DNA from: a bacterium
GTDB lineage: Bacteria; UBA8248
Assembly (NCBI GenBank): GCA_965199855.1
Contig: OZ241326.1
Span: 768,001 to 832,000, forward strand
Reading direction: 5' to 3'
DNA: 64,000 nt
The position numbers and the translations under genes are program-made. The notes under the pieces are model-generated. The model was not told the origin of the DNA, did no database searches, and saw only the letters and a program-made list of their open reading frames with translations. Every line of letters starts with the position of its first letter. Positions within the stretch are counted from its first letter, which is position 1. Below are positions 9,325 to 33,851 of the stretch, piece after piece.

Positions 9325-9352
9325 CCGCGTCTCCTCTCCGCCCTCGGGCGGC

Positions 9353-11878: not shown

Positions 11879-11929
11879 AATCTAGGACAGGCGGACCCGG
11901 AGGCGGGCGGCGCAAATGCGGGCAAATGC
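11879..11929 (-). promoter_or_regulatory. Putative activator-dependent late promoter 1 (capsid/tail module)
   Basis: GCATTTGC-CC-GCATTTGC (+ strand 11912-11929), 27 nt gap, then -10 TAGATT (11879-11884). Confidence 0.7.
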
Positions 11930-12110
11930 GCGCCCGGGCGCTTTTTTTCGCCGAAAATCGCCGATTTCGCGCTTCGCCCGTTTGCGGGCGCGTCAAAAGT
12001 GCGGCAACATGGGGGAACGCAACGGACGGCGGCGCTTCGCCCGCCGCCGCGACTCGCAGCTTCTCCGGGGATTCGGGCCGCCCTCCGGCGGCCCGGACGA
12101 GGCTCATCTC

Positions 12111-13373
12111 ATGTGGGGCGCCGCGCATCCGGCCTTGAACTTCCTCCAGAGCCTCTCCTGGAGCCACCTGATCGACATCGGCATCATGTGGTTCCTGCTC
12201 TACCAGGTCTATATCCGCTTCCGGGGCACCCAGGCCATGCGCCTTCTCGCGCGCGTGTTCGGGGCGTGGCTCGTCTATCTCGCCTCCCGGGCCGCCGGGC
12301 TGCACCTCACCTCGTTTCTGCTCTGGGCCATCTGGATCGCCGCGCTCATCCTGTTTCTCATCAACTTCCACGGGGAGATTCAGAGGATATTCTTCCAGCT
12401 CAATCCGGTGCGCCGCGTCTCCACCCTGCTGCGCCGGGCGATGCGCATCCGCCTGCCGGAGGAGAGCGTGGCCGCCGTCGCCGAATCCGCCGTCGCGCTC
12501 GCTCGCGCGAGCCTGGGCGCCATCCTCGTCGTGGAGCGCCGCGACTCGACCGAGGCGCTGCTGAGCAGCCCGGGCGAGAGGATCGACGCGGACATCCGCC
12601 CGGCGCTTCTGGAGACCATCTTCCTCAAGGGCGCGCCCTGCCACGACGGCGCCGCCGTGATCCGCGGAAGCAAAATCGCGCGCGCGGGATGCCTCCTCCC
12701 CCTCTCGGAGAACCCGGCGCTGCCCCCCTCGTTCGGCGCGCGCCACAGGGCGGCGGCGGGGGTCGCCGAGCGCTGCGACGCCCTGGCCATCGTCGTCTCC
12801 GAGGAGCGCGGCGAGATCACCTGCCTGGAAGGCGGCCAGACGAAGCGGGCGGCGAGCGGGGAGGAGCTCGTCTCCTGGCTCTCCGCGCGCCTGCGCGCGG
12901 ACAGGGGAGCGGCGCAGGCGGGGCGCCGCATGTCGCCCGGGCGCGCCCTGGAGAACTGGAAGCCCAAGCTCGCCGCCCTGGCCGCCGTCCTCTTTCTCTG
13001 GACGCTGGGGGGGCAGGGGGGGCGGAGCCCGCAGACGCTCTTCCCGGGGCTGGAAAGCCGGGCGGAGGAGGCGTTTCGCGTCCCGCTCCGCTTCTACAAC
13101 CTCCCGGAGGGCGCCGCCCTTCCCTCCGACGCGCCGCAAGCCGTGCGGGTCCGCATCGGGGGCAGGCGCGACCTTCTGAACTTCCTCGACGCCTCGCGCC
13201 TGCGGGTGAGCGTGAACCTCGCCGCCATGGCGCCCGGGGCGCGCGAGCGCGCCCTCACCGGCCGCGACATCGACCTGCCGGGCGGCCTCGAATTTCTGGG
13301 GGCGGAGCCGGCCACGCTGCGCTTCACCCTGGGGAAGGCGGGCGCGAAGGAGGAGAAGCGGGAGGCGCCCTGA
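12111..13373 (+). CDS. cdaA: Diadenylate cyclase (CdaA/DisA_N, 3 TM) fused to a YbbR/CdaR-like domain
   Basis: N-terminal TM helices, HDGA and RHRAA catalytic motifs, VVSEERG; C-terminal ENWKPKL-TM and VPL...VRVRIGG. Confidence 0.85.
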   Translation: MWGAAHPALNFLQSLSWSHLIDIGIMWFLLYQVYIRFRGTQAMRLLARVFGAWLVYLASRAAGLHLTSFLLWAIWIAALILFLINFHGEIQRIFFQLNPVRRVSTLLRRAMRIRLPEESVAAVAESAVALARASLGAILVVERRDSTEALLSSPGERIDADIRPALLETIFLKGAPCHDGAAVIRGSKIARAGCLLPLSENPALPPSFGARHRAAAGVAERCDALAIVVSEERGEITCLEGGQTKRAASGEELVSWLSARLRADRGAAQAGRRMSPGRALENWKPKLAALAAVLFLWTLGGQGGRSPQTLFPGLESRAEEAFRVPLRFYNLPEGAALPSDAPQAVRVRIGGRRDLLNFLDASRLRVSVNLAAMAPGARERALTGRDIDLPGGLEFLGAEPATLRFTLGKAGAKEEKREAP

Positions 13374-13674
13374 ACATTTTTCGCTTGCGTTTCCCGCGCG
13401 AAGGGGCGATATTGACAGCGTGGGATGGAAAAAGCCTGGACGCCGCCCGGCGCGAGCCGGAAGGAGCCGACGTGGAAAGCGGCTCCGGCTGATGGGCTGG
13501 CGCGAACGAACGGGAGGGTGCGATGATCTTCATCATCAATCGCTTCACCCGCGCGGAGTTTCCGCCCTCCCCGGCCCAGCGCGTCGGCCGGGCGGGGAGG
13601 AGACGGCAAGGCCGACGCCCATCCAAGGCGACCAGTCGCCTTTGCGGGTGAGCCTTCTCACCCGAAGAAAAGCC

Positions 13675-13717
13675 GAAAAGAGAGCGGGGCCCCTCTCGGG
13701 TCCCGCTCTTCTTTTCT
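13675..13717. terminator. Bidirectional intrinsic terminator
   Basis: GAAAAGAGAGCGGGGCCC-TCTC-GGGTCCCGCTCTTCTTTTC hairpin with A/T tails, between converging units. Confidence 0.65.
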
Positions 13718-13740
13718 CGCCGCTCCGCGAGCCTGCGGCC

Positions 13741-13944
13741 TCAGCCCTTCGCCGCCAGCTTCCGCATTTCGATCTCCAGCTGCTGGAGCCTGTTCTTGAC
13801 CACGTTGAAGTCGTATTCAAGCCCCTCGGCGAGCAGAACGAGGCCCTCGCAGAGCCTGCGCTTCCCGGGCGCCTCCTCCTCGCTCACCGAATCGAGAAGT
13901 TCGGCGAAAGCCTCCCTCGCGTGATGAAAGCTCAAGGCGCGCAC
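13741..13944 (-). CDS. Small coiled-coil hypothetical protein
   Basis: 67 aa, AAAAAGAGGGG before GTG, helical composition, followed by terminator. Confidence 0.55.
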   Translation of the reverse strand: MRALSFHHAREAFAELLDSVSEEEAPGKRRLCEGLVLLAEGLEYDFNVVKNRLQQLEIEMRKLAAKG

Positions 13945-14069
13945 CCCCTCTTTTTGAATGGACGCTGCGAAAGCGGAAAAATTCCCCGGCGGGGAGAGAT
14001 CCTACCCGCGTCTCTGCTAGAATCAAGCGCATCGACCAACGGGCCAGCGGCCCTTTCGAGGAGCCTCCC

Positions 14070-14564
14070 ATGCCGGAACGACCGAACGCGCCGCAGGTCA
14101 TCCTGCGCCTCATCCAGGGAACCCAGCTTCAGATGCTCACCACCACGGGCAGGCACTCCTACGTGCTGGACGAGCCGGAAAGCCGGGGCGGAACCGACCT
14201 CGCCGCCACGCCCTTCGAGTTCTTCGTCGCGGGCCACGCGGGCTGAGGCCTCTACACGCTGCTGGGAGCGGCGAAGAGCAGGGGCGTCCGCATCGACGAC
14301 GTGGAGGTTCACGCGGAGTTCAAGCGCAACGTCACGCCGAAATTCCACGCGGACTATCACGGCGACCCCGAGCGGAGGAAGCTGGCCATCGGCGTCATCC
14401 GAACGAGCTACTACGTTCGCGGCGACGTCTCCGAGGAGCAGCGGGCGGCGCTCCTGGAGGAACTCGCCAACTGCCCCATCCACAACACGCTGACGACGCC
14501 GCCCAGGCTCGAGGAGCGCATCGTCGTTCTGGCCGAAGGCGAGGCGCCGCCCCGGGAGGCTTGA
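14070..14564 (+). CDS. OsmC/YhfA-family protein with selenocysteine (UGA at 14244-14246)
   Basis: ATG 14070 after GAGGAG; DEPESRGGTD-x-AATPFEFFVAGHAG-UGA aligns with the OsmC first catalytic Cys; frame continues to CPIHNTL; hairpin follows UGA. Confidence 0.8.
14250..14278 (+). promoter_or_regulatory. Putative bacterial SECIS hairpin
   Basis: Upper stem CGCTGCT/AGCGGCG with GGG loop starting at the 11th nt after UGA; lower stem CTCT/AGAG. Confidence 0.6.
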
Positions 14565-14706
14565 GGCCCGGCGGGGAAAGGGGAGCCGCTCCCGAAGAAT
14601 TTCCCCGCGCGGACGCGGGGAGGCTCCGCGGAAAAGGACTGGACGCCCGGGCGCGAACGCGCCGTCGCCGGACGGGAACGCTCCCCGCTTGACGAGGAAG
14701 CGAGAG

Positions 14707-15606
14707 ATGAGAATCGGATTCATCGGATTGGGAAAGATGGGCGCCGGCATGGCGGCCAGCCTCCAGAGGGCGGGCCGCGCCCTCGTCGTTCACGACGTCG
14801 TCCGGGAGGCGGCGGAGGCGCACCTCGCGCGCGGGGCGCGGTGGGCGGATTCTCCCGCGGAGGTCGCCCGCGCGTGCGAAATCGTCCTCACCTCGCTTCC
14901 GGGGCCCCGGGAGGTGGAGAGCGTCGCCACGGGCTCCGGGGGCGTCCTCGAGGGCGCGGGCGCGGAAAGCGTCCTCATCGACCTCAGCACGGGCGCCCCC
15001 GCCGTCATCCGGCGGATTCACGAAAAATTCGCCGGGCGCGGGGCGCGCGTGCTCGACGCCCCCGTGAGCGGCTCCACCATCGGCGCGAGGACGGGCCGCC
15101 TCGCCATCATGGCGGGGGGCGAGCGGGAGGTCTTCGAGCGCTGCCGGCCCGTTCTCGAGGACATCGGGGATCGCCTCATCTACGCCGGCGAAATCGGCAG
15201 CGGCGCCGTCTGCAAGCTCGCCCACAACTGCCTGGGCTACGGCATTCAGGCGATCGCGGCGGAATGCTACACCCTGGGCGTCAAGGCGGGCGCGGCGCCC
15301 GAGGCCGTGGCCGAGGCGATTCTGAACGGCGCCGTGGGCCGGGGGGTGCACTTCAGCTTCCTCTTCCCCGAAACCTTCCTCAAGGGGAAATTCGACGAGC
15401 CGCACTTTCCGCTGAAGGGCGCGGTGAAGGACGTGGGGCTCGCCCTCGATATGGCCCGGGAGCACCGGGTGCCCATGACGATGGGCGGCATCGCCTACCG
15501 GGAGCTCGTCGCGGGCCTGAACCGGGGATGGGGAGAGGACGACGCGCGCCGCGCCATGACCCTCCAGGAGGAGCGCGCCGGCGTCCGGGTGCGGATTTCC
15601 GGATGA
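14707..15606 (+). CDS. 3-hydroxyisobutyrate dehydrogenase-family NAD(P)-dependent oxidoreductase
   Basis: IGFIGLGKMGAGMA, LDAPVSG, KLAHN. Confidence 0.9.
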   Translation: MRIGFIGLGKMGAGMAASLQRAGRALVVHDVVREAAEAHLARGARWADSPAEVARACEIVLTSLPGPREVESVATGSGGVLEGAGAESVLIDLSTGAPAVIRRIHEKFAGRGARVLDAPVSGSTIGARTGRLAIMAGGEREVFERCRPVLEDIGDRLIYAGEIGSGAVCKLAHNCLGYGIQAIAAECYTLGVKAGAAPEAVAEAILNGAVGRGVHFSFLFPETFLKGKFDEPHFPLKGAVKDVGLALDMAREHRVPMTMGGIAYRELVAGLNRGWGEDDARRAMTLQEERAGVRVRISG

Positions 15607-15693
15607 GGGGGCCGCGCGCCCCGGACGATGACGCGCGCCTTCGCCCCTGAGGCGCCCCCTCTCCCGCCGGAGCGCGAAGCGAGGAGCATCGGC

Positions 15694-16689
15694 ATGAAGC
15701 ACGGCATCGCCCTGCTGCCGCCCGAGCCGGCGGCCTACGCCCGCTGGTGCCGCCTCGCCGAGGAGGCGGGCTTCGCCGTCCTCTGGGTGCCCGACTCCCA
15801 GTCGCTCTACCGGGAGCTCTACGTCTCCTGCGCCGTCTGCGCCGCGAACACGAAGCGCGCCCTGCTGGGGCCCAACGTCACGAACCCGCTCACGCGGCAT
15901 CCGGCGGCGGCCGCGAGCGCCATCGCCACGGTGGACGAGCTCTCCGGCGGACGCGCGCTCTTCGGAATCGGCACGGGCGACAGCGCGGCGCTGAACCTGG
16001 GGCTGCGCCCCGGCCGGGTGGATGACCTGCGGGACTACGTCCTCGCCCTGCGCGGGACGCTCGAGGAGGGCGCCGCGCGCTGGCGGGGAAAGCCCTGCTC
16101 CCTGACCTGGCATCGAAAGCGCATCCCCATCTACCTCTCCGCCGAGGGGCCGCGAACGCTCATGCTCGCGGGCGAGATCGCCGACGGCGTCACCATCGGC
16201 TCCGGCCTCCGTCCCGAGGACGGCGCGCGCTCCGCGGGCCGCAAGGCGGACGACCTCGACGTCTGGTGGCTGGTGAAGGCGAACGTGGGCGAGGACGGGG
16301 CGCGGGCGCGCGAGGAGATTCGCGCCGCCCTCGCCGCCAGCGCGCATCACGCCTTCCGCTTCACGCTCGAGGGCCGGGGCGTTCCGAAGGAGCTGCGCTC
16401 CGCCGTCCGGACCCTGAAGAAGGAATACGCGTTCCACGAGCACGAGATGACGGACAAGCGCGCGAACGCGGAGCTCGTGGACAGGCTGGGCCTGCGCGAA
16501 TATCTGCTGAACCGCTTCGCCGTCGCCGGGACGCCCGCCGAGTGCCGAGAGCGCATCGCGGAGCTCGGGGCGATCGGCGTCGGGAACCTGAGAATCTCCG
16601 CCCACGTCCCGGACAAGCCCGCCTTCATCGAGAGATGGGGCCGCGAGGTGATGGGCCGGGACGCGCAGCCCGAAAGGACGCTTCCATGA
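15694..16689 (+). CDS. LLM-class (probably F420-dependent, Mer-like) oxidoreductase 1
   Basis: PDSQSLYRE, VTNPLTRHP, ELSGGRA-x-FGIGTGDSA, AEGPRTL-x-LAGEIADG. Confidence 0.9.
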   Translation: MKHGIALLPPEPAAYARWCRLAEEAGFAVLWVPDSQSLYRELYVSCAVCAANTKRALLGPNVTNPLTRHPAAAASAIATVDELSGGRALFGIGTGDSAALNLGLRPGRVDDLRDYVLALRGTLEEGAARWRGKPCSLTWHRKRIPIYLSAEGPRTLMLAGEIADGVTIGSGLRPEDGARSAGRKADDLDVWWLVKANVGEDGARAREEIRAALAASAHHAFRFTLEGRGVPKELRSAVRTLKKEYAFHEHEMTDKRANAELVDRLGLREYLLNRFAVAGTPAECRERIAELGAIGVGNLRISAHVPDKPAFIERWGREVMGRDAQPERTLP

Positions 16690-17687
16690 GACACGGCATT
16701 TCGTTCCGCCCGCCCGATACCGCCTCGTTCGCCCGCTGGTGCCGCCGCGCGGAGGAGGGCGGCTTCGACGCGGTGTTCATCCCCGACTCGCAGTCCCTCT
16801 ACCGGGAGGTCTATGTGTCGAGCGCGATATGCGCGATGGAGACGAAGAGCGTCCTCTTCGGCCCGTGCGTCACGAACCCGCTCACGAGGCACCCGGCCGT
16901 GGCGGCGAGCGCCATCGCCACCATCAGCGAGCTCTCCGGCGGGCGCGCCTTCTGGGGCATCGCCACGGGCGACAGCGCGGTGCTGAACCTGGGGCTCAGG
17001 CCCGCGAAGCTCGCCGACATGCGCGAATACGTCCTCGCCGTCCGGGGGATGCTCGAGGAGGGAAGCGCGCGCTACAAGGGCAAGGACTGCCGGCTGAGCT
17101 GGCATCGCGCCCGCGTTCCCATCCACGTCGCCGCCGAGGGCCCCAGGACCCTGCGCCTGGCGGGCGAGGTGGCCGACGGCGTCATCATCGGGACCGGCCT
17201 CTTGCCCGAGGTGGTCGCCGACGCGCTCCAGTTCATCGACGAGGGGGCGCGCGAATCCGGCAGGCGCGCGGAGGATCTCGACCTCTGGTGGCTCGCCGAC
17301 GCCCACGTGGACGCGGACGGGGAGCGCGCCCGCGAGGACGTCCGCACCGCCCTCGCCGCCAGCGCGCACCATTCGTTCTCCTTCACGCTGGAGGGCAAGC
17401 GCGTCCCGAAAGAGCTGGAAGCGGGCGTCCGCGCCCTCCGGGAGGGCTACCGCTTCTCCGAGCACGGCCTGATGGACAAGTCGAACAACGCCGCCCTGGT
17501 GGACGAATACGGCCTGCGGGAGTATCTGGCGGCGCGCTTCGCCATCGTCGGCACCCCCGCCGAATGCCGGAAAAGGCTCGCGGAGCTTGCGGCGCTCGGC
17601 GTCCGGGGCCTGCGCATCAACAACAACCTGCCCGACCGCGTCGAGTTCATGGACGCCTGGAGCAGGGAGGTGCGGGGGATGGGGTGA
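16686..17687 (+). CDS. LLM-class (probably F420-dependent, Mer-like) oxidoreductase 2
   Basis: Tandem paralogue with the same motifs; ATGA overlap. Confidence 0.9.
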   Translation: MRHGISFRPPDTASFARWCRRAEEGGFDAVFIPDSQSLYREVYVSSAICAMETKSVLFGPCVTNPLTRHPAVAASAIATISELSGGRAFWGIATGDSAVLNLGLRPAKLADMREYVLAVRGMLEEGSARYKGKDCRLSWHRARVPIHVAAEGPRTLRLAGEVADGVIIGTGLLPEVVADALQFIDEGARESGRRAEDLDLWWLADAHVDADGERAREDVRTALAASAHHSFSFTLEGKRVPKELEAGVRALREGYRFSEHGLMDKSNNAALVDEYGLREYLAARFAIVGTPAECRKRLAELAALGVRGLRINNNLPDRVEFMDAWSREVRGMG

Positions 17688-17743
17688 GAGGGGGGAGCGA
17701 AGCAGTTTTCCTTCGGCCGGACGCCCTGAACAACCCGGCCGCT

Positions 17744-18277
17744 CTAACGGGAAGACGCGGCTTCCAGTTCCTCGACCCGCTCGCCGTCCTCGCTTTCCTG
17801 TCGGCGGCGTCGCCCGGCGGCTTCAATCGCCCGGGCGATGACGGAGAACGACTTCGGGGGGCCATACGAGCCTCTCACGTCCAGTTGCCGCAGTTTGTCC
17901 GTTTCCCAATCCGCGAGACGCCTGAACACCCTGGAGACGACCTGCTGCCGGGATTTGACGCGGGAGACGTCCTCCCCTTCCTCCTCCAGGAAGGCGCGGA
18001 CGCTGTTGACGTTCGGCATGAACCTCTTTTCCTCGTATTTCCTCGCAAGCGCCATGAGAGCGTTCTTTTTTCCCTCATCCGGCAACGCAAGGGATTCCAC
18101 GATGGCCACGGCGTTCGGCCTGGGTCGCGGCTTTCTCGCCCGCTTGACGGAAGCATTTATTGAGACGGGCGCGTTTGCCCGGGCGGGGCCGCAATCCTCC
18201 AGCGCTCTGCGAACCGCCTCGTATCCGCAATCCTCGACAAGGACCGACAGCAGGCTTCTCAAAGCGGTTTTTTTCAC
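17744..18277 (-). CDS. Hypothetical protein translationally coupled to ParA
   Basis: 177 aa, GTGA overlap with ParA stop, lower GC than flanks. Confidence 0.6.
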   Translation of the reverse strand: MKKTALRSLLSVLVEDCGYEAVRRALEDCGPARANAPVSINASVKRARKPRPRPNAVAIVESLALPDEGKKNALMALARKYEEKRFMPNVNSVRAFLEEEGEDVSRVKSRQQVVSRVFRRLADWETDKLRQLDVRGSYGPPKSFSVIARAIEAAGRRRRQESEDGERVEELEAASSR

Positions 18278-19140: not shown

Positions 19141-19454
19141 GCTTTTCTCCTCGGTTATCCGATGCCGCGAATTTTCATGAGCGCATCGTCAACGCGCTCT
19201 CCCCTATTATGCGCCCTCGCGCGCGATTTTGAAAATTCGAGAAACCCCCAGAACCGTTCCCCTCCGCCGCGGCGTGGCGTAGAGCGGACGGAAGCTTGCG
19301 GGATGGGGGCGCGTCCCTGGTCACGCCGCCGCGCCGAGGATGAAGAAGCGCCGCCGAACGTATCTCGCCCCCTGATCGTTCTTCTCACAAGGCTGACGAT
19401 ACCCTGATCCCGAACGGAAACGGCATCAAGCCGCCGCAAAAATTCACGCCCCCC

Positions 19455-20801
19455 TCACCCCTCGAGGCTCATGCCGAACTGGCCGGCGATGTGGCGGACG
19501 AGCCTGCCGGCGGCCGCGTCGCTCATCCAGCCGCGCGCGGTCGCCGCGGCGAGCGCCTCGCTCACGCGCGCGAGCGCCTGGGAGAGCTTCTCGGCGTCGC
19601 GGACGGATATCTCCGGCAGGACGGGCGAGACGCCCGCGCGCAGCGCCTCCTCCGGCAGCGCGCCCGCGCGATGGGCCTCCTCGAGCTGCCTGTCGGCCAT
19701 GGCCTGGAGGACGTGGCGCACGGCGCGCTGGCGCCGCGTCATCTTCTTCAGGGTGGGCTGATCCATCGATTCGGCGGAGGCGCGGTTCACGTCCTCGCCC
19801 TGGGCGAACCAGTGGGAGGGAATCCCCGCGCCGCCCAGCAGAAGCCCCCGCACCAGCTTGGCGACCCCCTGAAGGCCGCTCTCGCCCCCCTTCAGGTCGG
19901 GCGAGACGGCCTGCCAGTGCTCCTTCTCGTTGTGGACGCGCACGCTCGAGGGGCGCGGGGCGACGCCGTTCTCGGCGAGCCAGTCGGCGATCTGCTCCGG
20001 CCCCGCCCCCTTCAGGGTGACGTCGTAGATGAAGCTGTTCTGAAGGCGGGCGCGCTCGACGGCGTCGAAGACGAAGCGCTCGTAGGCGTCTATCCAGTCG
20101 ATGGCGGCGAGGAGGTCGGAGGAGCCGCGGGCGGCGTCGCTCGCCTTGTTGATTTGGAAGAGGAACGCCTCGCCGTCCGTGAAGCGCGCGCGCTCCCTTT
20201 GGGCGGCCGCGCTCAGGTAGCCGCGCGGGTCGCCGCCCAGCGCCGTCCGCAGCCGCCTGCCCCTCCGCCCCGCTCCGCCCGGCCCCTCGGCGCGCAGGAC
20301 GACCCCCAGCGCCAGGGCGCAGTTGTCCGGGTCCATCACCACCTCCTCGATCAGGCGGGGGCTGACGTAGCCCAGGCGCACGCGCCCCTCGAAGCGCGAG
20401 ACGGCGAGCGGCAGGAGGAGCTCGCCGAAGACGCCGAGCTCCGAGACGAGCCGCTCGAAGCGGATGTCCATCTGGTTCACGGGGTCGCCCCAGAACGCCC
20501 GGACGGCGCGCAGGGCGCGCTCATCCTCCGAGTGCCAGCTCACCCCCTCGCCCACGACGTGGTCGGTGACGATCTCGATGAGGCGCTGGCCCATCAGGTT
20601 CGTGAGCCAGAGCTCGTGCGCGAGGAACTGCATCCGCGCGTGGTCGCGGCGCGGCAGCGCGCCCGTCTCCGCTCCCAGGGGCCGCCAGACGCCCTCGTCG
20701 GGGTCTATCGCCGCGCTCATCCGCCCGGCGCCGCGCGAGGCGGCCCCCGCCGCGCGCCTCCTCCTCCGCGCGGGGCTTTCCTTCGCCTTCGCGTTCTCCA
20801 T
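19455..20801 (-). CDS. Phage portal protein
   Basis: INKASDAARGSSDLL...WIDAYERF, VRVHNEKEHW, AGIPSHWF...NRASAESM; follows terminase. Confidence 0.8.
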   Translation of the reverse strand: MENAKAKESPARRRRRAAGAASRGAGRMSAAIDPDEGVWRPLGAETGALPRRDHARMQFLAHELWLTNLMGQRLIEIVTDHVVGEGVSWHSEDERALRAVRAFWGDPVNQMDIRFERLVSELGVFGELLLPLAVSRFEGRVRLGYVSPRLIEEVVMDPDNCALALGVVLRAEGPGGAGRRGRRLRTALGGDPRGYLSAAAQRERARFTDGEAFLFQINKASDAARGSSDLLAAIDWIDAYERFVFDAVERARLQNSFIYDVTLKGAGPEQIADWLAENGVAPRPSSVRVHNEKEHWQAVSPDLKGGESGLQGVAKLVRGLLLGGAGIPSHWFAQGEDVNRASAESMDQPTLKKMTRRQRAVRHVLQAMADRQLEEAHRAGALPEEALRAGVSPVLPEISVRDAEKLSQALARVSEALAAATARGWMSDAAAGRLVRHIAGQFGMSLEG

Positions 20802-20803
20802 TC

Positions 20804-21445
20804 TCACTCCCTCCTGAGCATTCGCCGGCCCGGCGCCCGCGGAGGCGCGGTTCCCCCGGCGGCGGGGGCCAGCATCCCCTCGCTCCGCGCCAGGGACTCG
20901 GCCAGCCGCGCGTAGGCGCAGGCGAAGCCGAAGTGGTTCTCGTTGCGCTCGTAGGACAGGACGGTCTCGCCCGAGGCGCGCAGGCGCGGCCTTTTCCGCA
21001 GGTTCATCAGGTGGCGATCCACGCGGGCGAGGAGCGCCTCCTCCTCCGCGCTCCCGGGCGTGGGCATCAGGACGCGCTCCGGCCCCTGGTGAAGCTCCTC
21101 CACCAGATGATCCAGCAAATCCTCGCGGCTCACGCGCGCGTGGCGGCGCGGCGCGCCCAGAAACGCGACCTCCCTGATCCGCGCCTCCCCCTCGGCGTGC
21201 CGCCAGATGAAGCCGCCCTCCGGATGCAGGTCATAGACCGCCCGCGCGGCCTGGGTGTGGGGGCCGCCGTCGATGACGAACGCCTCGACCCCCAGACCCT
21301 CGAACACGGCGCGGCACCGGGGGAGGAGCCGCTCGATGGGCGGCTCCTCGAAGTATATCCACCGGACGCGCCGCCCCGCCTCGCGCACCGCGAGAGCGCA
21401 GACGTCGCCCGTGTCGATTCCGCAGAAGCGGTGGGGCGCGCTCAC
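20804..21445 (-). CDS. Terminase large subunit, separate nuclease (RNase H-like) half
   Basis: FCGIDTG, FVIDGGP, NENHFGFACAYA; GTG at 21445 with GGAGG RBS, GTGA overlap with ATPase stop. Confidence 0.7.
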   Translation of the reverse strand: MSAPHRFCGIDTGDVCALAVREAGRRVRWIYFEEPPIERLLPRCRAVFEGLGVEAFVIDGGPHTQAARAVYDLHPEGGFIWRHAEGEARIREVAFLGAPRRHARVSREDLLDHLVEELHQGPERVLMPTPGSAEEEALLARVDRHLMNLRKRPRLRASGETVLSYERNENHFGFACAYARLAESLARSEGMLAPAAGGTAPPRAPGRRMLRRE

Positions 21446-22500
21446 GCGGGCGCCTCCGCCGGCGGATAGGGCGCGGCGGCGCGCAGGCTTTCCAGCAGCT
21501 CCCGCGTGACGGGTTGCGCGTCTCCCGCGTCGGGCATGGCGAGCGACGAGCAGCGGAAGCGCGCCTTCTCGCTCGGAAGCCGCGCGGCGGCCCACTTCGC
21601 CGCGATCCGGCGCAGGCGGACGGCGCCGACCGCGAGCTGGGAGAGGCGGTAGCTCCTGTGCCGGGGCAGGGCGCGCGCCGCCTCCCATCGCCCCGCTCCC
21701 CGCGCGAGCGGCGCGCCGCACGCCGGGCAGACGAGCGCCGAGGCGCGCAGGACGCGGGGCCAGTGCTCCTCCAGGGCGCTCTCCGCGCGGCAGGCGGGGC
21801 AGCGCGCGAGCCAGCGCCTCTGATCCCCCGCCTCGTACATGGCGTGAATGCCCGCCCCGGGCGTTCTCCCCACCGCGAGGTTCAGCGTCAGGGCGAGCGG
21901 CGAGGCGTCGAGGCGGTCGTTCGACCACGCGAGGTTCTCCGGCGGGAGGTCGTCCACCTCGTCCCGAATCAGCACGTCGAGCGGCAGCGAGATGGCGCTG
22001 CCCACGTCCCGGAGCCCCAGGATGTAGAGGAACCGCGACCCCCCGGGGCCGGGAAACTCCTTGAGTCCCCTCGGCGAGGCGCCCCGGTAGGCGCCGTGGC
22101 GCATGAGGCGGGCGATTCGCCCGCGCCGCAGCACCGGGCGCACGCGCGTCTGATCGAAGCGGTTGGCGAAGTCCTGGTCGGGCAGAAAATAGCCCACGTT
22201 CAGGCGGCGGACGATGACGCCGTAGAGCGCCGCGCCTATCGCCAGGGTGGTGAGGCCCACCTGCGCCCCCTTGAGGATGGTGATGGTCTCATCGGGCGCG
22301 CCCCTCTCGAAGACGGCGTCGAGGGCGGCCGCGGGCTCCAGCAGCGCCTCGCGCCCCTCGAAGGTGAAGGGGCCGCCGTCGGCGCGAATCTCGCTCGCGA
22401 GAAACCGCGCCAGCCCGCGCGCCGCGCCGGCGAAGCGCGCGGGGGCGCCCGCCGCCAGGGCGAGGCTCGGGGCGCGAATGATTTTTCGGGACTTTCGCAA
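21442..22500 (-). CDS. Terminase large subunit, GpA-type ATPase half
   Basis: ILKGAQVGLTT Walker A, LIRDEVDD Walker B, GDQRRWLARCPAC and CPACG Zn motifs; TTG start after GGAGGAG. Confidence 0.8.
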   Translation of the reverse strand: MRKSRKIIRAPSLALAAGAPARFAGAARGLARFLASEIRADGGPFTFEGREALLEPAAALDAVFERGAPDETITILKGAQVGLTTLAIGAALYGVIVRRLNVGYFLPDQDFANRFDQTRVRPVLRRGRIARLMRHGAYRGASPRGLKEFPGPGGSRFLYILGLRDVGSAISLPLDVLIRDEVDDLPPENLAWSNDRLDASPLALTLNLAVGRTPGAGIHAMYEAGDQRRWLARCPACRAESALEEHWPRVLRASALVCPACGAPLARGAGRWEAARALPRHRSYRLSQLAVGAVRLRRIAAKWAAARLPSEKARFRCSSLAMPDAGDAQPVTRELLESLRAAAPYPPAEAPA

Positions 22501-22551: not shown

Positions 22552-22602
22552 AATATAGGGCGCGGACGCCGCCGTCCGCGAGGCGCAAATGCGGGCAAAT
22601 GC
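22552..22602 (-). promoter_or_regulatory. Putative activator-dependent late promoter 2 (terminase/portal module)
   Basis: GCATTTGC-CC-GCATTTGC (+ strand 22585-22602), 27 nt gap, then -10 TATATT (22552-22557). Confidence 0.7.
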
Positions 22603-23465: not shown

Positions 23466-24755
<1,290 letters not shown>

Positions 24756-25524: not shown

Positions 25525-25896
25525 CTATGCGGCGCCTCCTTCCTCCGCGTCCAGCAGGCTCCGCAGCTTGGGAAGGAGATCGGGAGCGCCGACCTCGATC
25601 ATGTCCCAGATGAGGTCGTCGTTCATGCCCAGATAGCCATGAGCCAGCTGGTTTCGCGCGCCGATGATGTCACCCCAGTGAATCCCGGGATGCCGCTCGC
25701 GCGCCGCTTCCGGGACGTGGGTCGCCGCCTCGCCGATGAGTTCCAGGTTTCGCAGGGTGGCGTCGTAGGTGCGCGCGTCGGCGACGAACGCGGCCTGATC
25801 CAGCCCGGCCGTATAGGAGAGCGCCCTCTCGCCGAATTCGATCATGTCCCGGATGTAGAAGAGCCATTCGCGCCCCTGATGAACGCCGTCAGACAT
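25525..25896 (-). CDS. HepT/DUF86 HEPN ribonuclease toxin
   Basis: RNLELIGEA, RNQLAHGY (RxxxxH). Confidence 0.9.
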   Translation of the reverse strand: MSDGVHQGREWLFYIRDMIEFGERALSYTAGLDQAAFVADARTYDATLRNLELIGEAATHVPEAARERHPGIHWGDIIGARNQLAHGYLGMNDDLIWDMIEVGAPDLLPKLRSLLDAEEGGAA

Positions 25897-26179
25897 GAAT
25901 GAGATCCCGCTCGACGTAGGGGCGCAGCTCGGCGCGCACCATCTTGTCGGTCGCCAGATCGACCTTTCGTCCCAGCAGATCCTCGATGTAGAACTGCGCG
26001 CCGAAATACTTCGTCGTCGTCGTCCGCCCCTCGAAGCGCACGAGAACGTCGAGGTCGCTCCCCTCGCCCGCCTCGTCGCGGGCGAAGGAGCCGAAGATGG
26101 CGAGCTCGGCCACCCCGAAGCGCTCCGAGAGGGTCGCCTTGTGCGTCCGGAGCAGATGAAGCACGTCGTCTCTCTTCAT
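25889..26179 (-). CDS. MNT nucleotidyltransferase antitoxin
   Basis: FGSFARDE...SDLDVLV; overlaps HEPN gene. Confidence 0.9.
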   Translation of the reverse strand: MKRDDVLHLLRTHKATLSERFGVAELAIFGSFARDEAGEGSDLDVLVRFEGRTTTTKYFGAQFYIEDLLGRKVDLATDKMVRAELRPYVERDLIHV

Positions 26180-28154: not shown

Positions 28155-28198
28155 CCTCTCTCGCCTCCGGCGACGGCTCGGAAGGGCATGATACATCA
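28122..28198 (+). repeat. Direct repeat copy A (contains cyclase RBS and start codon)
   Basis: About 77 bp near-identical to 29272-29348; core CGGCTTCGACRTCCTCTCTCGCCTCCGGCGACGG. Confidence 0.9.
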
Positions 28199-28405
28199 TT
28201 CCCGCGCGGGAGGCGAAGGCGGGGGCGTTCGAGGGGATGCGATTGCGGCGGACGGCTTCAAGCCCCGGCGCCGGAAAACGCCCGCGACCCGGACGCTGCG
28301 GGGAGGCTTTCGTCAAGAAAGAGCGCTGAAAAATACCCGCTTCATTTTTCCTCCCATGCGGCGCCGGACGTCCCGGATTCCCTGACCGGGCTGGCGCTTG
28401 AATCG

Positions 28406-29176
28406 TCATTTCGCTCCCGGTTCTGGTTTGAAGCATTGGTTGGAGTCCAGAAATTTCTTCTCCTCGGCGTCCGCCCGAAGACCCCAGTAAAGTTTCAGGG
28501 CCGCCCACGTCTTCAGATAATCGCAGTGGTATGCCCGGTTCGGCGGAAGCCAGTGGACGGGGTCTTTGCTCCCCTTGGATCGGCTGCTTGAGGACGAAAC
28601 GGCGATCAACGTATCGGGGTTGGAAAGATCATTCGCGTATTCTCGCCGCTGCGCGGGCGTCCAGCCGGCGCCGCCGCTGCGATGCGCTTCGGCCAACGGA
28701 ATGAAATGGTCAATGTCCAGATATTTGGGATCGGTGAATACGCGACCCGTATACGGATCCTCCCATCGACCGGAGACGACCTCGCAGCCCGCCGCGTCGA
28801 GTTTCACGGGTCGGGTGCTCTCGGCTATCAGGACCTCATGCCTGGTATTCTGGCAGTCGCCGTCCTGATCGATCCAGCCCCCGTAGAGCTCCCTGCTGTA
28901 AGGAACCGCCTGGGCGGCCTCCCCGGATGAAGAACGATTCGTTTCCTTGGGGACGTTTCCCCGCCTCCGCCGGCCAAGCATGGGAGTTTCCGGCGAGCCG
29001 GCCCCGGGACGATGGCATCCGCCCCCTTTCCCGCCCCGATGGCAGCCGAATCTATCGAGTCCCCCGCCGCGAGCATGTGCGGGTTCGATTGAGACATGGG
29101 AGAGAAAGGCGAGGGTGAGAAAAAATACGGCTACGACAGAATTGCAAAGCTGATACGATCTGCCGTCTGCGGCCAT
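28406..29176 (-). CDS. Secreted DUF1524-type HNH nuclease with N-terminal YHYH-like segment
   Basis: Signal peptide, GGLDRFGCH, DGDCQNTRHEVL, DPYTG, LDIDHFIPL, RSKGSKDP. Confidence 0.8.
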   Translation of the reverse strand: MAADGRSYQLCNSVVAVFFLTLAFLSHVSIEPAHARGGGLDRFGCHRGGKGGGCHRPGAGSPETPMLGRRRRGNVPKETNRSSSGEAAQAVPYSRELYGGWIDQDGDCQNTRHEVLIAESTRPVKLDAAGCEVVSGRWEDPYTGRVFTDPKYLDIDHFIPLAEAHRSGGAGWTPAQRREYANDLSNPDTLIAVSSSSSRSKGSKDPVHWLPPNRAYHCDYLKTWAALKLYWGLRADAEEKKFLDSNQCFKPEPGAK

Positions 29177-29271
29177 CTTTTTCTTTCCTGTTTGCTCAAG
29201 CCTTACGCAAAAATAGCAAAAGCCCAATCCGGGAAATCGTGCTCCCGCTCTTCCGAGAAAATCCCCCGTTT

Positions 29272-29388
29272 GACGCCCGGCTCGGACGCGCCCGGCTTCG
29301 ACATCCTCTCTCGCCTCCGGCGACGGCTCGGAGCGGCATGACGCATCAACGCGGCCCCGGTGATTCCTTCATATCGACAACTCTTCCT
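29272..29388 (+). repeat. Direct repeat copy B
   Basis: Shares about 77 bp with copy A and about 100 bp with copy C; includes the MTase 3' end (EELSI*). Confidence 0.9.
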
Positions 29389-30829
29389 GCTTCGCGTCCG
29401 GTTGCTGGAAAGCGGCTCTTTTCCCCGGCGCTACCCTGAGAGGAGGGACTTTCACCGGCAAGCCTTCGGACTCGAAGAACTGCTCGATGGTGGCCACCTG
29501 AACGCGGGGAAACCTTCCGAAGTCGCATTCGTAAAAGCCCGCCGAGGCGGCCTGGGCCGTCATCGGCTGCGTCGGCGGCGCGAGCGTGATCAAAAAGCCC
29601 ATCGCCGCGCCTTCGGCGTCCAGGGTGGCCGTCAGCTCTCTGACCATGCCGACGCCGACGTTTTTGCCTCCCTTGACGGAAACAACGCAGAGTTCGTGTT
29701 TTTTCTCGCCCGTCATAATGTAGAAGAATCCATCTACGCCGCCGTCCGCCCCCTTCTTGCCCAAGCGCCATGGCTTGCCGTCGGGCATGAGGGTAACAGC
29801 CCAGAGTTCAAACTGATGCTTGTCCTGATCGGCCAAAGCGCGCGCGCCGGGGATATCCTGGGGCTGACCGTGAATCTCGTATCTCGCGCCCGGGAAAGCG
29901 CCTCGGAGCCGATCCCGAATCTCCCGAACGGCCAGATGGGTGATATCAATCCCCATCCATCGGCGGCCCAATTTCTCGGCCGCATGAACTGTCGTGCCGC
30001 AGCCGCAAAACGGGTCGAGCACCATATCGCCGGGGTTGGAGGAAGCCGAGACTATGCGCTCAAGCAGGGCGAGAGGCTTTTGCGTAGGATAGCCCAGACG
30101 CTCCCTTGATGAAGGCGCCAGAACAGGGATGCGCCAAACGGCGTCCAATGGAACGGCGGAATCTTCCCCGGTCTCCACTGTCGGATTTCTCGCCCCGCCT
30201 TCTCCAAAGGTTGCCCGCTGCCTTTTGCCCTTCCATCTTTTCCGGGAACTTTCCGACTGCTCGCGGTAAAGCTCGTTGAATGTTCCGGGCGCCGCGTTCC
30301 TGGAGTAATAAAGAATGATATCGTGCATTCGCTGAAACCTGCGCGCCTTCGTGGGCCAGCGACGATAGCTCCAGACAATCTCATTCCGGAAGCGATCTTT
30401 CCCGAACACGGCGTCCAGCAGAATTTTGAGATAATGGCTCGCCGTCGGGTCGCAGTGCAGGTAGAGGCTGCCCGTGGGCTTCAGCACCCGATGCAGTTCC
30501 AGCAGCCGCGCGGCCATCATCGCCAGATAGGCCATCATGTCGTTTTCACGCAAAAAAGAGCGCATCGCGTTCAGCATTCCGGCCGCGTCGGAATGACCCG
30601 AGCGCAATACCTCCTCGAAAGCCTCTTCCGCCTTCCGCCCCCAGTGCCAGGTGTCGTCGAACGCTTCGATCTGCGCGCCGCTGTTTTCTCCGGCGGGGGA
30701 CTTGAAAAGCACGTTGTATGCAGCGTTGGAATTGAACGGAGGATCGAGATAAATCAAATCCACGCTTTCATCGGGGACGCTTTCGCGCAGCACCGGCAGG
30801 TTGTCGCCATAGTAGAGCTGATTGGTCAT
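29369..30829 (-). CDS. Adenine/N4-cytosine DNA methyltransferase (beta class) with C-terminal restriction-endonuclease-like domain
   Basis: YLDPPFNS, YPTQKP, VLDPFCGCGTT; C-terminal GADGGVDG...VSVKGG. Confidence 0.88.
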   Translation of the reverse strand: MTNQLYYGDNLPVLRESVPDESVDLIYLDPPFNSNAAYNVLFKSPAGENSGAQIEAFDDTWHWGRKAEEAFEEVLRSGHSDAAGMLNAMRSFLRENDMMAYLAMMAARLLELHRVLKPTGSLYLHCDPTASHYLKILLDAVFGKDRFRNEIVWSYRRWPTKARRFQRMHDIILYYSRNAAPGTFNELYREQSESSRKRWKGKRQRATFGEGGARNPTVETGEDSAVPLDAVWRIPVLAPSSRERLGYPTQKPLALLERIVSASSNPGDMVLDPFCGCGTTVHAAEKLGRRWMGIDITHLAVREIRDRLRGAFPGARYEIHGQPQDIPGARALADQDKHQFELWAVTLMPDGKPWRLGKKGADGGVDGFFYIMTGEKKHELCVVSVKGGKNVGVGMVRELTATLDAEGAAMGFLITLAPPTQPMTAQAASAGFYECDFGRFPRVQVATIEQFFESEGLPVKVPPLRVAPGKRAAFQQPDAKQEELSI

Positions 30830-30926
30830 ATCGACGCGCCTCCGGTCATGTCCGCTCCGCCCGACCCTTCGCGCAACTTAAAGCAAACTCCGGCCGAAGG
30901 AAATCCCGCGCCGGGACAGGCGCGGG

Positions 30927-31028
30927 CGCGCCCGGCTTCGACGTCCTCTCTCGCCTCCGGCGACGGCCCGGAGGGGCATGACGCATCAATGCGGCCCCGG
31001 TGATTCCTTCATATCGACAACTCTTCCT
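30927..31028 (+). repeat. Direct repeat copy C
   Basis: Near-identical to 29287-29388 (offset 1640). Confidence 0.9.
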
Positions 31029-31357
31029 CCGCTCGAATCGTCGGCCCGCGCCGGGGCGTCCTCCCGCAGAAGAATACCATACGTTTCCCCGGCTCTTGCG
31101 GGGATGCGGAAAAATCGCCCCGGCCCCCTTCGCCGCGGGAAGCGGGGCGTCTCTCGCGGGAGGGGAAATCAGAGCCTTCGGGAGCCGCCGCCCTTCATCC
31201 GGTTCTCGTCGAAAAACCCCTCCGGCGGCCCGAATATGGCGATCAAGCGCGAAAGGAGCCGGCCCCGGCTTCTCGATGCCGGCCGTCCGCGCGGGGCTGT
31301 CTCCAATCCCGCCGTCGCCGCGCCGGCAAACGAAAGGGAGCGTCAAAACGTCCCCCC

Positions 31358-31927
31358 TCAAATGCGCTCCTCCAGGGCGCGGGCGGCCTCCGCGGTGATC
31401 TCCTCCACCTTCGCCAGCACGTCGGGATGGTCGAGGAGCGACTCGCGCACCTCGGCGAGAATCGCCATCTTGGCGGCGGCGAAGCCGTCCTCATACCGGA
31501 GCCTCAGCCGTCCCGCCGAGATGCGGGTGCGCTCGAGGGCGTTCACCATCCCCGCGAGCTTCTCCGGCGTGAGCTCCTCGAAGGATTCGCTCCTCATGCG
31601 CGAGACGGCCTCGACCGCCTGCGCCATCAGCATCCGCCGGGCGGCGGCCGCCGCCTTCTCGCCCGGGTCGCTCCCCTCGCCGTCGTAGGCGACGACCTCC
31701 TCGATGAGCTCGTCCACCATGGCCTCCACGCGCCTGCTCCTGCGGATGGCCGCGCGCAGCCTGCCGTTGCGGTTCTTCATCGAGCTGATGGAGATGCTCT
31801 CTCCCGTCGCCTCCTCGAAGGCGCGCGCCACCTCCCTGTAGGGCTTCCCGGCGGCGAGCATGGAATCGACCAGCTCCTCGGCGCCGTATTCCACGATCTT
31901 CGACCTGCGGCCCCGCTTTCTCTCCAT
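31358..31927 (-). CDS. Mu gp27/DUF3486-family protein (putative small terminase)
   Basis: RGRRSKI, N-terminal HTH (YREVARAF...ISISS), long helical C-terminus; TGATG coupling with upstream gene. Confidence 0.7.
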   Translation of the reverse strand: MERKRGRRSKIVEYGAEELVDSMLAAGKPYREVARAFEEATGESISISSMKNRNGRLRAAIRRSRRVEAMVDELIEEVVAYDGEGSDPGEKAAAAARRMLMAQAVEAVSRMRSESFEELTPEKLAGMVNALERTRISAGRLRLRYEDGFAAAKMAILAEVRESLLDHPDVLAKVEEITAEAARALEERI

Positions 31928-32259
31928 CACAGCGCCCCCGCGAGAATGTCCGCCGGAAGCGGCACCGCGCCCTCGAGCGCGCCCCGCCCCCGGCGGGTGA
32001 GGTGCGCCTCGTAGTCCGTCAGCAGGCGGCCGAACCCCTCCGGGGAGCGCTTCTCCACGAGGCCCCGGCGCGCCAGATCGTCCACGAACGCCTCGAGCGT
32101 CTCGCGGCCCAGGGGCGCGCCCTCCTCGTGGTGGCCCGCCTCGCGCAGCGCGCTCCACAGGAGGAGGCTGCCCACGCTCGCCCCCGCGTGAAAGGCGTCC
32201 TGGTAGTAGAGCGTCTTCAGGATGTCGCCGCGCAGAACGCGGGCGGTCAGTTCGTTCAC
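31927..32259 (-). CDS. Mu gp26-like winged-helix protein
   Basis: LRGDILKTL, DLARRGLVE, AHLTRRGR...EG; GGAGG RBS; precedes gp27-like gene. Confidence 0.65.
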   Translation of the reverse strand: MNELTARVLRGDILKTLYYQDAFHAGASVGSLLLWSALREAGHHEEGAPLGRETLEAFVDDLARRGLVEKRSPEGFGRLLTDYEAHLTRRGRGALEGAVPLPADILAGAL

Positions 32260-32384
32260 GATTGCAGCCTCCCGAACGGTCCGGATGCGGCGCGGGCGCG
32301 CCCGGCCCCGATGGCGCGGCGCGCGCGGGCGCGTTTGAGAAAAAGGCGCGCGAGGCGCATGATCGGGGAGAGGAGGAGCGACCG

Positions 32385-32792
32385 TTGCGCGCGAGCCGTC
32401 CGAAAATCATCCTCTGCGCCCTGTGCGCCGCGCCGCTCCTCTGGCTTTCCGCCGCCCCCGCCCTGGGCCACGGCGAGGAGGAAATCCTCCTGTTCGTCTC
32501 CATGGCGGACGAGCCGAACCTGCTCCGCGTCTCGACCGCCCTCGTGGGCGGCCTCATTCTCGCGCTGGGCGCGCTCATCCTGCGCCAGACGCGCGCCGGG
32601 GCGGGAGAGGAAGCGGGCGCCCCGCGCCTCAAGCGCATGGCGCCGGGGCTGGTCGCCGCGGGGCTGGGCGCCGCCATCCTGCTCACGGCCGCCTTCATCC
32701 TCCCCGAGCGGATTCCGGTGTTCCACGATCACCCCGTCCCCGGCGACGCCGGAGGCGGGCGAGAGGACGCGCCGCGGCCCTCGCCGCAATGA
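32385..32792 (+). CDS. Small membrane protein (signal peptide plus 2 TM)
   Basis: TTG after AGGAGGAG; three hydrophobic segments. Confidence 0.55.
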   Translation: MRASRPKIILCALCAAPLLWLSAAPALGHGEEEILLFVSMADEPNLLRVSTALVGGLILALGALILRQTRAGAGEEAGAPRLKRMAPGLVAAGLGAAILLTAAFILPERIPVFHDHPVPGDAGGGREDAPRPSPQ

Positions 32793-32827
32793 CGCCGAAA
32801 GACGGAAGCCGTCCGCCGCGTCAGCCC

Positions 32828-33262
32828 TCACTTCGCCCGCCCTCCGATCTTCTCCACGGTGCGGAGCGCGCCGAGTCCCAGCATCCCGAGGGTGAGCTCC
32901 ATGAGCCCGTCCGCCGCGACGGGATAGGGGACGAGCTCCCCCGTCATGATTACCTGGCGCGTCCACAGCCAGGCGCCCAGGGCGAACTGCGGGATGAAAT
33001 AGAACGCGAGCGAGACCCCGCACGTCCACAGGATGAACGGCCGGCCCCCCGCCACGAAGGGCGAGCGGTGCGCGGCCTCGATCTTCGCGATCTCCGCCTG
33101 CGCCTCCGCCGGCTTCATCATGATCTTCATCTTCAGGGCCTCGGCGGCCCGCTTCTCCTCCGGCGTCTCCACGAAGCGGTCGATCACGTTCGCCACGCCC
33201 TCGGCCGCCGTCGCCACGCTCGCCGCGCCTCCGCCCAGCAGCCCGCCCAGAAAGCCGATCAT
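32828..33262 (-). CDS. 3TM-type holin (DUF3154/GTA_holin_3TM family)
   Basis: EAAHRSPFVAGGRPFILWTCG, LGMLGLGALRTVEK; ATGA overlap with lysozyme. Confidence 0.8.
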   Translation of the reverse strand: MIGFLGGLLGGGAASVATAAEGVANVIDRFVETPEEKRAAEALKMKIMMKPAEAQAEIAKIEAAHRSPFVAGGRPFILWTCGVSLAFYFIPQFALGAWLWTRQVIMTGELVPYPVAADGLMELTLGMLGLGALRTVEKIGGRAK

Positions 33263-33723
33263 CTCCTCTCTCCTCCTCTCCCGGACTCCGGCGATTTCCT
33301 CGCCGTTCCCTCCGCCTCCCGCAGCCCCGCCGCCACGCGCGCCGCGCGCGCGGGCGCCTGCCGCGCGTATTCCGAATCGAGCGCCTCGGCCGCGGCGCGC
33401 CCATAGTCGCCGCGCGCCAGCGCCGCCCACATCCTCCGAAAGCCCAGCAGGGCGGGGACGCCCATGTTGTAGGCCATGTCGAGCAGCGCCTCCCGCGCGG
33501 CGGGGGCGAGGCGCCCGAAGACCGCCCCCCGCTCCGAGCGCGCCACCTCCTCCGCCATCGCGCCCAGGCGGTGGCGAAGGAGCAGCTCCGCCTCCGCCTC
33601 GCTCACGCCCTCCTCCAGCAGCGTTCCGTAGCCGATGGTCGCGTTCCCCAGATGGTCGAGATAGATTTTTCGGGAAAATCCCTCCTCGCGCTTGACGCGC
33701 TCGACCAGTTCGTCCGTGATCAT
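33259..33723 (-). CDS. Phage lysozyme (GH24-like)
   Basis: EEGFSRKIYLDHLGNATIGYG (E-x8-D-x5-T catalytic pattern), DMAYNMG, RQAPARA. Confidence 0.9.
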   Translation of the reverse strand: MITDELVERVKREEGFSRKIYLDHLGNATIGYGTLLEEGVSEAEAELLLRHRLGAMAEEVARSERGAVFGRLAPAAREALLDMAYNMGVPALLGFRRMWAALARGDYGRAAAEALDSEYARQAPARAARVAAGLREAEGTARKSPESGRGGERR

Positions 33724-33800
33724 GCGAGCCTCCTTTTTCGGGTCTGCGGCCTTTCCCGGCGTCCCGCGCCTCTTTCGCCGGACGCCGCCACCGCGGGAGG

Positions 33801-33851
33801 ATTCTAGCCGCGCCCCGCCCCTCTCCCGCGATCGCAGATGCGGGCAAATGC
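33801..33851 (-). promoter_or_regulatory. Putative activator-dependent late promoter 3 (lysis module)
   Basis: GCATTTGC-CC-GCATCTGC (+ strand 33834-33851), 27 nt gap, then -10 TAGAAT (33801-33806). Confidence 0.7.

Follow-up and report, generated by a model that had tools for sequence, protein, structure and literature searches.

What drives three phage-derived gene modules that lie apart from one another in a bacterial chromosome, each behind what looks like the same promoter? The question is raised by a 64,000-nt stretch of contig OZ241326.1 (positions 768,001 to 832,000 of the forward strand, GenBank assembly GCA_965199855.1; hereafter the window), in which a tandem repeat element stands at a fixed distance upstream of a −10 box ahead of a capsid, a terminase and a lysis operon. 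On balance, we think that the three sites are probably promoters of the modules of a domesticated, vertically inherited, multi-locus particle system resembling a gene transfer agent (GTA), and that they form one promoter class served by a dedicated activator.

A pattern search of the window for GCATTTGCNNGCATYTGC, in which up to two mismatches were allowed, returned three matches, all of them exact and on the minus strand. The chance expectation was 0.09, and three or more matches occurred in none of 100 shuffled sequences. Promoter 1 carries the tandem element GCATTTGC-CC-GCATTTGC, with a 10-bp period, at 11912..11929 (−), and its −10 box, TAGATT, lies at 11879..11884 (−) and has a column conservation of 0.97 across orthologues. 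In promoter 2, the element is at 22585..22602 (−) and the −10 box, TATATT, at 22552..22557 (−). Promoter 3 has the form GCATTTGC-CC-GCATCTGC at 33834..33851 (−), with a degenerate third unit at 33854-33861, and reading of the sequence places its −10 box, TAGAAT, at 33801..33806 (−). At all three sites, the motif is separated from the −10 box by exactly 27 nt. Search and reading together confirmed the arrangement described in the initial annotation, namely two 8-mers joined by CC, the second of the form GCATYTGC, followed by 27 nt and TAGATT, TATATT or TAGAAT.

What lies between and around these elements differs from site to site. The 27-nt spacers have 12, 9 and 10 identical positions, and composition alone predicts 10.8, 8.5 and 10.0; they are therefore unrelated, as had been claimed. 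The A/T tracts that had been reported upstream of the motif are also present (A7, A4 and T6 at sites 1, 2 and 3, respectively). The −10 boxes conform to the sigma-70 type (nAnAnT), with neither an extended −10 nor a −35 element. If transcription starts 7 nt past the −10 box, the element of promoter 1 would occupy approximately −57 to −40. The tandem units end ~4 bp upstream of the −35 position and, because they repeat every 10 bp, all face the same side of the helix. Each unit is itself a small dyad, GCA-NN-TGC.

The same element marks further phage genes far outside the window. Two exact copies lie 1.8 Mb away, each upstream of phage genes, in agreement with the earlier prediction that genome-wide hits would mark the missing tail modules. 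One precedes a 607-aa tape-measure-like gene (PHROG 1535, 2e-12) and the other a six-gene distal-tail block. Two members of this block gave leads only: the first resembles viral proteins with near-maximal confidence, and a 403-aa member resembles TipJ/Phage-tail_3 host-specificity proteins with marginally lower, still very high, confidence. In 13 of 21 loci, the tape-measure gene directly follows a small membrane open reading frame (ORF) that ends the distal-tail block; in five of 21, this genome included, the gene has a promoter copy of its own, and three of 21 are ambiguous. Here, the two are separated by three tandem, paralogous ORFs of ~184 aa with lipoprotein-like N-termini (L016 5882-7651, equivalent to G000:C1:2587051-2588820), which are absent at this spot in the 13 contiguous loci. 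Thus, in this genome, where the tape-measure gene no longer adjoins the genes that precede it elsewhere, it has its own promoter, which fits the earlier suggestion that co-regulation was maintained after an operon was split.

Conservation of the architecture was counted in congeners and relatives by anchoring on the motif. It is found at the capsid promoter in 20 of 26 sequences, with a 27-nt spacer in all 20, and at the terminase promoter in 21 of 21 orthologous loci, where the spacer is always 27 nt and TATATT is invariant. The distal-tail promoter has it in 21 of 21 loci (27 nt in 15 and 26 nt in six). A corresponding element stands in front of the lysis operon in 16 of 18 loci, again at 27 nt; in most congeners, it lies ~474 nt upstream of the endolysin gene, ahead of an extra first gene. 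Column conservation was 0.97-1.00 in the motif and 0.97-1.00 in the −10 box, 0.79-0.83 in the spacer and 0.60-0.81 in the upstream flank.

In distant relatives, the position of the motif is taken by a GAAT-type variant, GAATTTCC (GAATTTCCCCGAATTTCC and similar), followed by 27 nt and a −10 box. These variant promoters precede capsid, terminase, tape-measure-like and distal-tail genes. One such relative keeps the genes contiguous, in the order portal-capsid...tube-promoter-tape measure-promoter-distal tail. Because contiguous relatives have internal promoters of the same geometry, the promoter set predates the dispersal of the genes, and this, too, is in line with co-regulation having outlasted the split. 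The operator itself has drifted as a whole between lineages, as GCATTTGC in one and GAATTTCC in the other.

The genes behind the three promoters of the window all lie on the minus strand. Module 1 begins with a 688-aa fusion of protease/scaffold and major capsid protein (9724..11790), which matches PHROG 29592 (5e-122), 4523 and 133 and Pfam Phage_capsid_4 (1e-46). The gene starts with TTG behind AAAGGAGG, a start common to its orthologues, and its nearest phage counterparts are lambdoid protease-capsid fusions (30-43% identity over 43% of the protein). The rest of the head-neck-tail-tube operon (5807..9694; PHROG 5 and 290; Pfam Phage_tube_2) comprises genes at 9353-9694, 8614-9324, 8097-8597 (tail completion/Neck1), 7571-8104, 7388-7558, 6252-7391 (the tail tube gene) and 5807-6196, an order kept in ~20 species. 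The ratios of nonsynonymous to synonymous divergence (dN/dS) of the operon genes are 0.19-0.52. Module 2 encodes the ATPase part of a large terminase (21442..22500; 352 aa; PHROG 675 positions 25-343 of 576; Pfam GpA_ATPase), its nuclease part as a separate ORF (20804..21445; 213 aa; positions 362-547 of 576 of the same PHROG) and a portal protein (19455..20801; PHROG 10963 at 1e-43) that is 74-88% identical in congeners. The two terminase ORFs overlap by 4 nt and are of the lambda gpA type.

Module 3 is the lysis operon (31358..33723; PHROG 7 and 3427), with genes for an endolysin (33259-33723; Pfam Phage_lysozyme), a holin with three transmembrane segments (32828-33262; Pfam GTA_holin_3TM, PF11351, 45.5 bits against a cut-off of 24.8) and a conserved protein of 446 aa with no assigned function (31358-32698); the synteny of these three is kept in congeners. 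The extra gene with which the operon opens in most congeners lies ~100-470 nt upstream of the endolysin gene (L077-L091) and is missing from this genome and its nearest relative. Its product contains a stretch that, by eye, we take to be YegP/DUF1508-like.

These modules are fixed in the host chromosome. A search with the capsid gene, using one genome per species, yielded 28 loci from records labelled Nitrospinota, Tectomicrobia or unclassified metagenome-assembled genomes (MAGs). In ~20 species, the order portal / Lux2-Lux1-HIBDH-DisA / capsid...tube / FrhB-CofH recurs; DisA adjoins the capsid gene in 21 of the 28 loci. In 15, the tail genes are followed by FrhB, and the remaining loci mostly run into contig ends. 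In the window, the host genes between modules 1 and 2, assigned by Pfam and placed likewise in 21 of 28 related loci, occupy 12009..17687 (+) and encode a DisA-type cyclic di-AMP synthase, a 3-hydroxyisobutyrate-dehydrogenase-like protein and two luciferase-like monooxygenases. YajQ, AmtB, a HepT/MNT pair, adenylate cyclase and restriction-modification islands are also interspersed with the blocks, and the F420 genes CofD/CofC/CofE lie on their far side.

Divergence was calculated against six genomes by the Nei-Gojobori (NG86) method. Synonymous divergence (dS) of the phage genes equals that of the host flanks, at ~0.2-0.4 to the nearest genome and 0.43-0.82 to the others. The dN/dS of eight phage-derived structural genes is 0.18-0.52, as compared with 0.17-0.51 for the host flanks; the phage-derived genes are under purifying selection. 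All 20 genes are single-copy in this genome. Among 22 congeners, the terminase, tape-measure and first distal-tail genes are each present in 20 and the endolysin gene in 18. Two genomes (G008 and G009) lack all four of these queried modules together, and the capsid gene as well. Pfam scans of 45 window proteins detected no integrase or transposase family, nor any other family of integration, replication or lysogeny. The conserved order with host genes in between, the host-like dS and the single copies indicate a domesticated, vertically inherited system and not a prophage.

The element is not confined to the five modules. Genome-wide, the motif has 111 matches with up to two mismatches, as compared with 0 for the reversed control, and 41 of its copies are exact. 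The matches form 103 clusters, 60 of which have a −10-like box 25-29 nt downstream. For the exact copies, a −10-like hexamer follows 26-28 nt downstream in 38 of 41 (at exactly 27 nt in 32), against a background of 0.011 per position, and two of the three exceptions are accounted for by the distal units of an array of three. At these 38 sites, no match to TTGACA better than 3/6 was found 16-18 nt upstream of the −10 box, as at random positions, which upholds the initial claim that a −35 is lacking.

Most of these additional copies have a common setting. For 51 of the 55 motif promoters away from the modules, the next 450 nt downstream contain the core GAATTTGTC or its complement, where chance predicts 0.015 per site; the core has 114 hits in the whole genome and is missing at four of the five module promoters. 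From their sequences, the ~55 promoter copies are multiplied by two families of short, intergenic repeat cassettes, in which they are predicted to fire into an AT-rich core of phased A-tracts. This multiplication explains the genome-wide abundance of the motif. Family 1 is ~330 bp long, intergenic and present in 27 copies (e.g. G000:C1 908650-908990, L021, and 1129440-1129790, L022). It consists of the palindrome TTGTTCCACGTGGAACAA, three GCATNTGCCC units, 26-27 nt, TATATT, ~190 nt of phased A-tracts and GTGAATTTGTCTGATTTTGCAGAAATTCGC. Family 2 is larger and non-coding, with 16 copies (e.g. G000:C1 837434-838040, L025), and runs from the motif through 27 nt, GAGAAT, ~300 nt and the AT-rich core, inverted, to a degenerate array of three motif units. 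Indels and stops that differ between copies interrupt an ORF of family 2 ('MDFGKRMMTKA...'), which is probably no gene. For 12 cassette-bearing loci, Rfam returned no family at E values up to 0.1.

The cassettes turn over rapidly. Turnover was followed at two host genes, in one intergenic region compared with genome G001 and for both genes across the genus. The gene for methylmalonyl-CoA mutase has a motif promoter in one of 22 orthologues and that for CtpA has motif and −10 box in one of 20, this genome in each case; eight other CtpA loci have arrays with no −10 box. The mutase copy corresponds to an insertion of ~310 nt, as judged against the nearest congener, upstream of a conserved TGGTATTTT promoter. 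Five other genomes lack the cassette as a unit. The strict pattern gave 2 to 77 hits in 20 of 22 congeners; G015 and G019 have few, mostly at modules, and in G018 and G020 the cassettes have two convergent motif/−10 units on either side of an AT-rich core. In G019 (L144 2930-3030 and L145 3170-3230), the motif copies outside the modules lead into tandem ACCCGGGAAA repeats, with a 10-bp period, in place of a −10 box, which makes a further phased A-tract array beside the motif.

Two host functions were considered for the extra copies. A housekeeping regulon, suggested by the mutase, AlaRS, PlsY, CtpA/TsaD and transporter genes downstream, is ruled out by the orthologue comparison and by the core-linkage count. 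Nor are the TATATT-type copies promoters of rRNA or tRNA genes: of the single rRNA operon and the 49 tRNAs of the genome, none lies behind a motif site. The initial annotation had held that a motif common upstream of unrelated genes would speak against a regulon. In this genome the motif is indeed that common; the regulon still stands, since the extra copies ride on species-specific cassettes, whereas the module copies are conserved across the genus.

These results support the earlier proposal of a single regulon, in which promoters lacking a −35 and sharing an upstream element head separate phage-derived modules. The five modules share one promoter class, which consists of two or three units of GCAT(T/C)T(G/C)C with a 10-bp period, predicted to extend from about −57 or −67 to −40, followed by 26-27 nt of free spacer and a sigma-70-type −10 box, with no −35. 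It precedes the head-neck-tube, terminase-portal, lysis, distal-tail and tape-measure modules. A putative dedicated activator, encoded on the chromosome, would bind the tandem units along a single side of the helix, immediately upstream of the site for sigma region 4. Bound as tandem protomers, or as one protein with two reading heads, it would contact and recruit RNA polymerase, so that all modules fire together. Particles would then be produced and DNA transferred.

Several points weigh against this proposal. The start sites and the co-expression of the modules are predictions, as are particle production and DNA transfer. No activator gene was recognized. No DNA-binding family occurs among the module genes scanned; none occurs beside the contiguous cluster of one distant relative either, and the ORFs of no known family there have no counterpart in this genome. 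With ~55 cassette copies, this genome does not reserve the element for phage modules, and a general host factor or RNA polymerase itself may be the reader of the motif. The small terminase was not found, and the large terminase is divided over two ORFs. Open terminase frames of ~365 aa in 20 congeners suggest that this split is old and tolerated, or is bridged by frameshift readthrough. The NG86 estimates of dS are rough in a genome whose G+C content at third codon positions exceeds 0.9. Finally, a sister genus (G023) has 40 hits to the variant motif, as compared with 0 for the control, and no capsid match; of the modules it has only a portal gene, with one in-frame TGA. Such hits in the absence of intact modules are hard to reconcile with the idea that the cassettes strictly require an intact particle system.

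The first alternative is that RNA polymerase itself reads the tandem units, as an intrinsic promoter element used throughout the host, such as an equivalent of the UP element for the alpha C-terminal domains or a feature of a lineage-specific sigma factor. The phage modules would then have strong but ordinary host promoters, and there would be no special regulon. UP elements are A/T-rich, lie at −60 to −40 and are typical of stable-RNA promoters. The predicted position of the units (−57 to −40) and their two subsites 10 bp apart are those of a UP element, and the 60 promoter-like sites in the genome, the motif in 20 of 22 congeners and the failure to find an activator are what this account would expect. 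The position fits a UP element; the A/T-rich tract is lacking, as the units are GC-flanked 8-mers conserved at 0.97-1.00. Moreover, the rRNA promoter and many tRNA promoters of this genome have no units and are canonical instead, TTGACA-N17-TAnnnT, whereas the motif promoters are entirely without a −35. The motif promoters are therefore a distinct class, which argues for an activator over a general promoter feature. Outside the cassettes, the motif is confined to the five phage modules, and at neither of the two host genes tested is it conserved. We thus consider an intrinsic element unlikely.

In the second alternative, the motif belongs to a mobile repeat resembling a miniature inverted-repeat transposable element (MITE), bound by a transposase or a nucleoid protein, and the module promoters are old cassette insertions. 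This would account for the ~55 of 60 sites that are cassette-borne, for the fast turnover of cassette positions and sequences and for the dyad in each unit, and the convergent motif/−10 units of other congeners do resemble terminal repeats. It does not explain why the AT-rich core is absent at four of five modules. The module geometry is kept across genus and family, even in G015 and G019 with their very few cassettes, and a fixed 27 nt to a −10 box is hard to explain for a transposase site. We judge a mobile origin of the module promoters improbable.

A related proposal leaves the regulon in place and makes the cassettes a working part of the particle system, their AT-rich cores being switched on by the same activator as the modules. 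In that case, the cassettes could be dispersed sites of packaging initiation, or of local replication or opening, that act like pac sites and feed host DNA into particles. We hold this only as a doubtful possibility.

The reading closest to the Mu frame of the initial annotation is a Mu-like prophage in which an activator of the Mor/C type, encoded by the phage, drives the late operons. The promoters here share with Mu late promoters only the missing −35 and the upstream element, and we dismiss this reading as very improbable: the whole genome has 0 matches to Mor/C (PF08765) or Ogr/Delta (PF04606), with positive controls matched in Bacillus subtilis and E. coli, respectively; the terminase is of the lambda gpA type and the nearest phage capsids are lambdoid; no integrase or transposase family occurs among the 45 window proteins scanned; and these are vertically inherited chromosomal genes, with host-like dS and host genes between them in conserved order.

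The favoured reading, a GTA-like system under a dedicated activator, can be set beside known systems. As a functional class, GTAs are particles that carry host DNA and cannot multiply by themselves. In the GTA of Rhodobacter capsulatus (RcGTA), GafA is the direct activator (PMC6363796, PMC9638019, PMC11150451), and this one activator is reported to bind the promoters of the structural cluster, of its own gene and of the lysis cassette (PMC6363796). The activator logic of GafA and of phage late promoters fits the motif promoters described here. Both systems have domesticated, phage-derived particle genes on the chromosome at several loci. Phage-derived head, portal, terminase, tail and lysis genes, as defined for GTAs, are found by PHROGs and Pfam (for the distal tail, as a lead only), fixed in the chromosome, inherited vertically and without a module for integration, replication or lysogeny, and their dN/dS is within the range of their host neighbours.

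The differences from RcGTA are substantial. The structural genes are unrelated in sequence, with no homology to RcGTA g1-g15, and only the holin matches, through PF11351, a family first defined on GTA holins. In a sequence search, the capsid, portal, tube and distal-tail proteins had no match to any solved chain. The bank of solved structures presumably includes the RcGTA chains. Further, the terminase here is gpA-type, the lineage is one whose related MAG records are labelled Nitrospinota/Tectomicrobia, a near-invariant tandem-repeat operator stands at a fixed distance from the −10 box before every module, and the same operator is multiplied on intergenic cassettes.

Phage late regulons offer a second comparison. 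In Mu, C and Mor act at the late promoters Plys, PI, PP and Pmom, and in P2, Ogr acts at four late promoters. As here, several promoters without a −35 in one morphogenetic region share a site just upstream of the −35 position, and relatives with contiguous genes show exactly that layout. By contrast, the sites here are direct 10-bp repeats and not one dyad, there is neither a Mor/C activator nor an Ogr/Delta zinc-finger activator, and the genes are no longer those of a phage; the likeness is one of mechanism and not of membership. At OmpR/PhoB-type and MarA-type sites, two or three recognition units with a 10-bp period line up along one side of the helix and stop near −40, at promoters with a poor or absent −35. 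The resemblance to these is of geometry only, and the unit sequence is not known to match any named site.

If the favoured reading is true, an uncultured lineage from which no such system has been described has domesticated a multi-locus particle system independently. A search of full-text literature returned no paper that, judged by its title, concerns gene transfer agents in Nitrospin*, and none with Tectomicrobia. Unlike in other such systems, a clear and testable cis-element would tie all modules together; it provides a handle for finding the activator, a pattern-search route to missing modules and a means to trace a phage late regulon that survived operon scattering. The cassette-borne promoters beside host genes pose the question whether particle induction rewires or exposes the host chromosome. 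Were the cassettes part of the system, the host chromosome would carry a dispersed set of pac-like sites belonging to the gene transfer agent itself.

Some further features of the window deserve mention. A 972-aa ORF at 2683-5601 (−) was considered as a tape measure and rejected, being an arginine-rich, spurious antisense frame over CofD/CofC/CofE and a cupin gene on the plus strand; as this example illustrates, plain listings of ORFs mislead in DNA of such a G+C content. Islands of low G+C content and defence-type genes surround the modules, at 25525-26179, 28406-30829, 36512-37525 and 47809-49380, and include the HepT/MNT pair, a GmrSD-like nuclease, an N6/N4 methylase-Mrr fusion, a C5 methylase and a Fic protein. 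At 40330-40520 (−), a cassette-type AT-rich core with two GTGAATTTGTC words lies behind TTGACG-N17-TATATT and not behind the tandem motif, upstream of two small genes at 39501-40129.

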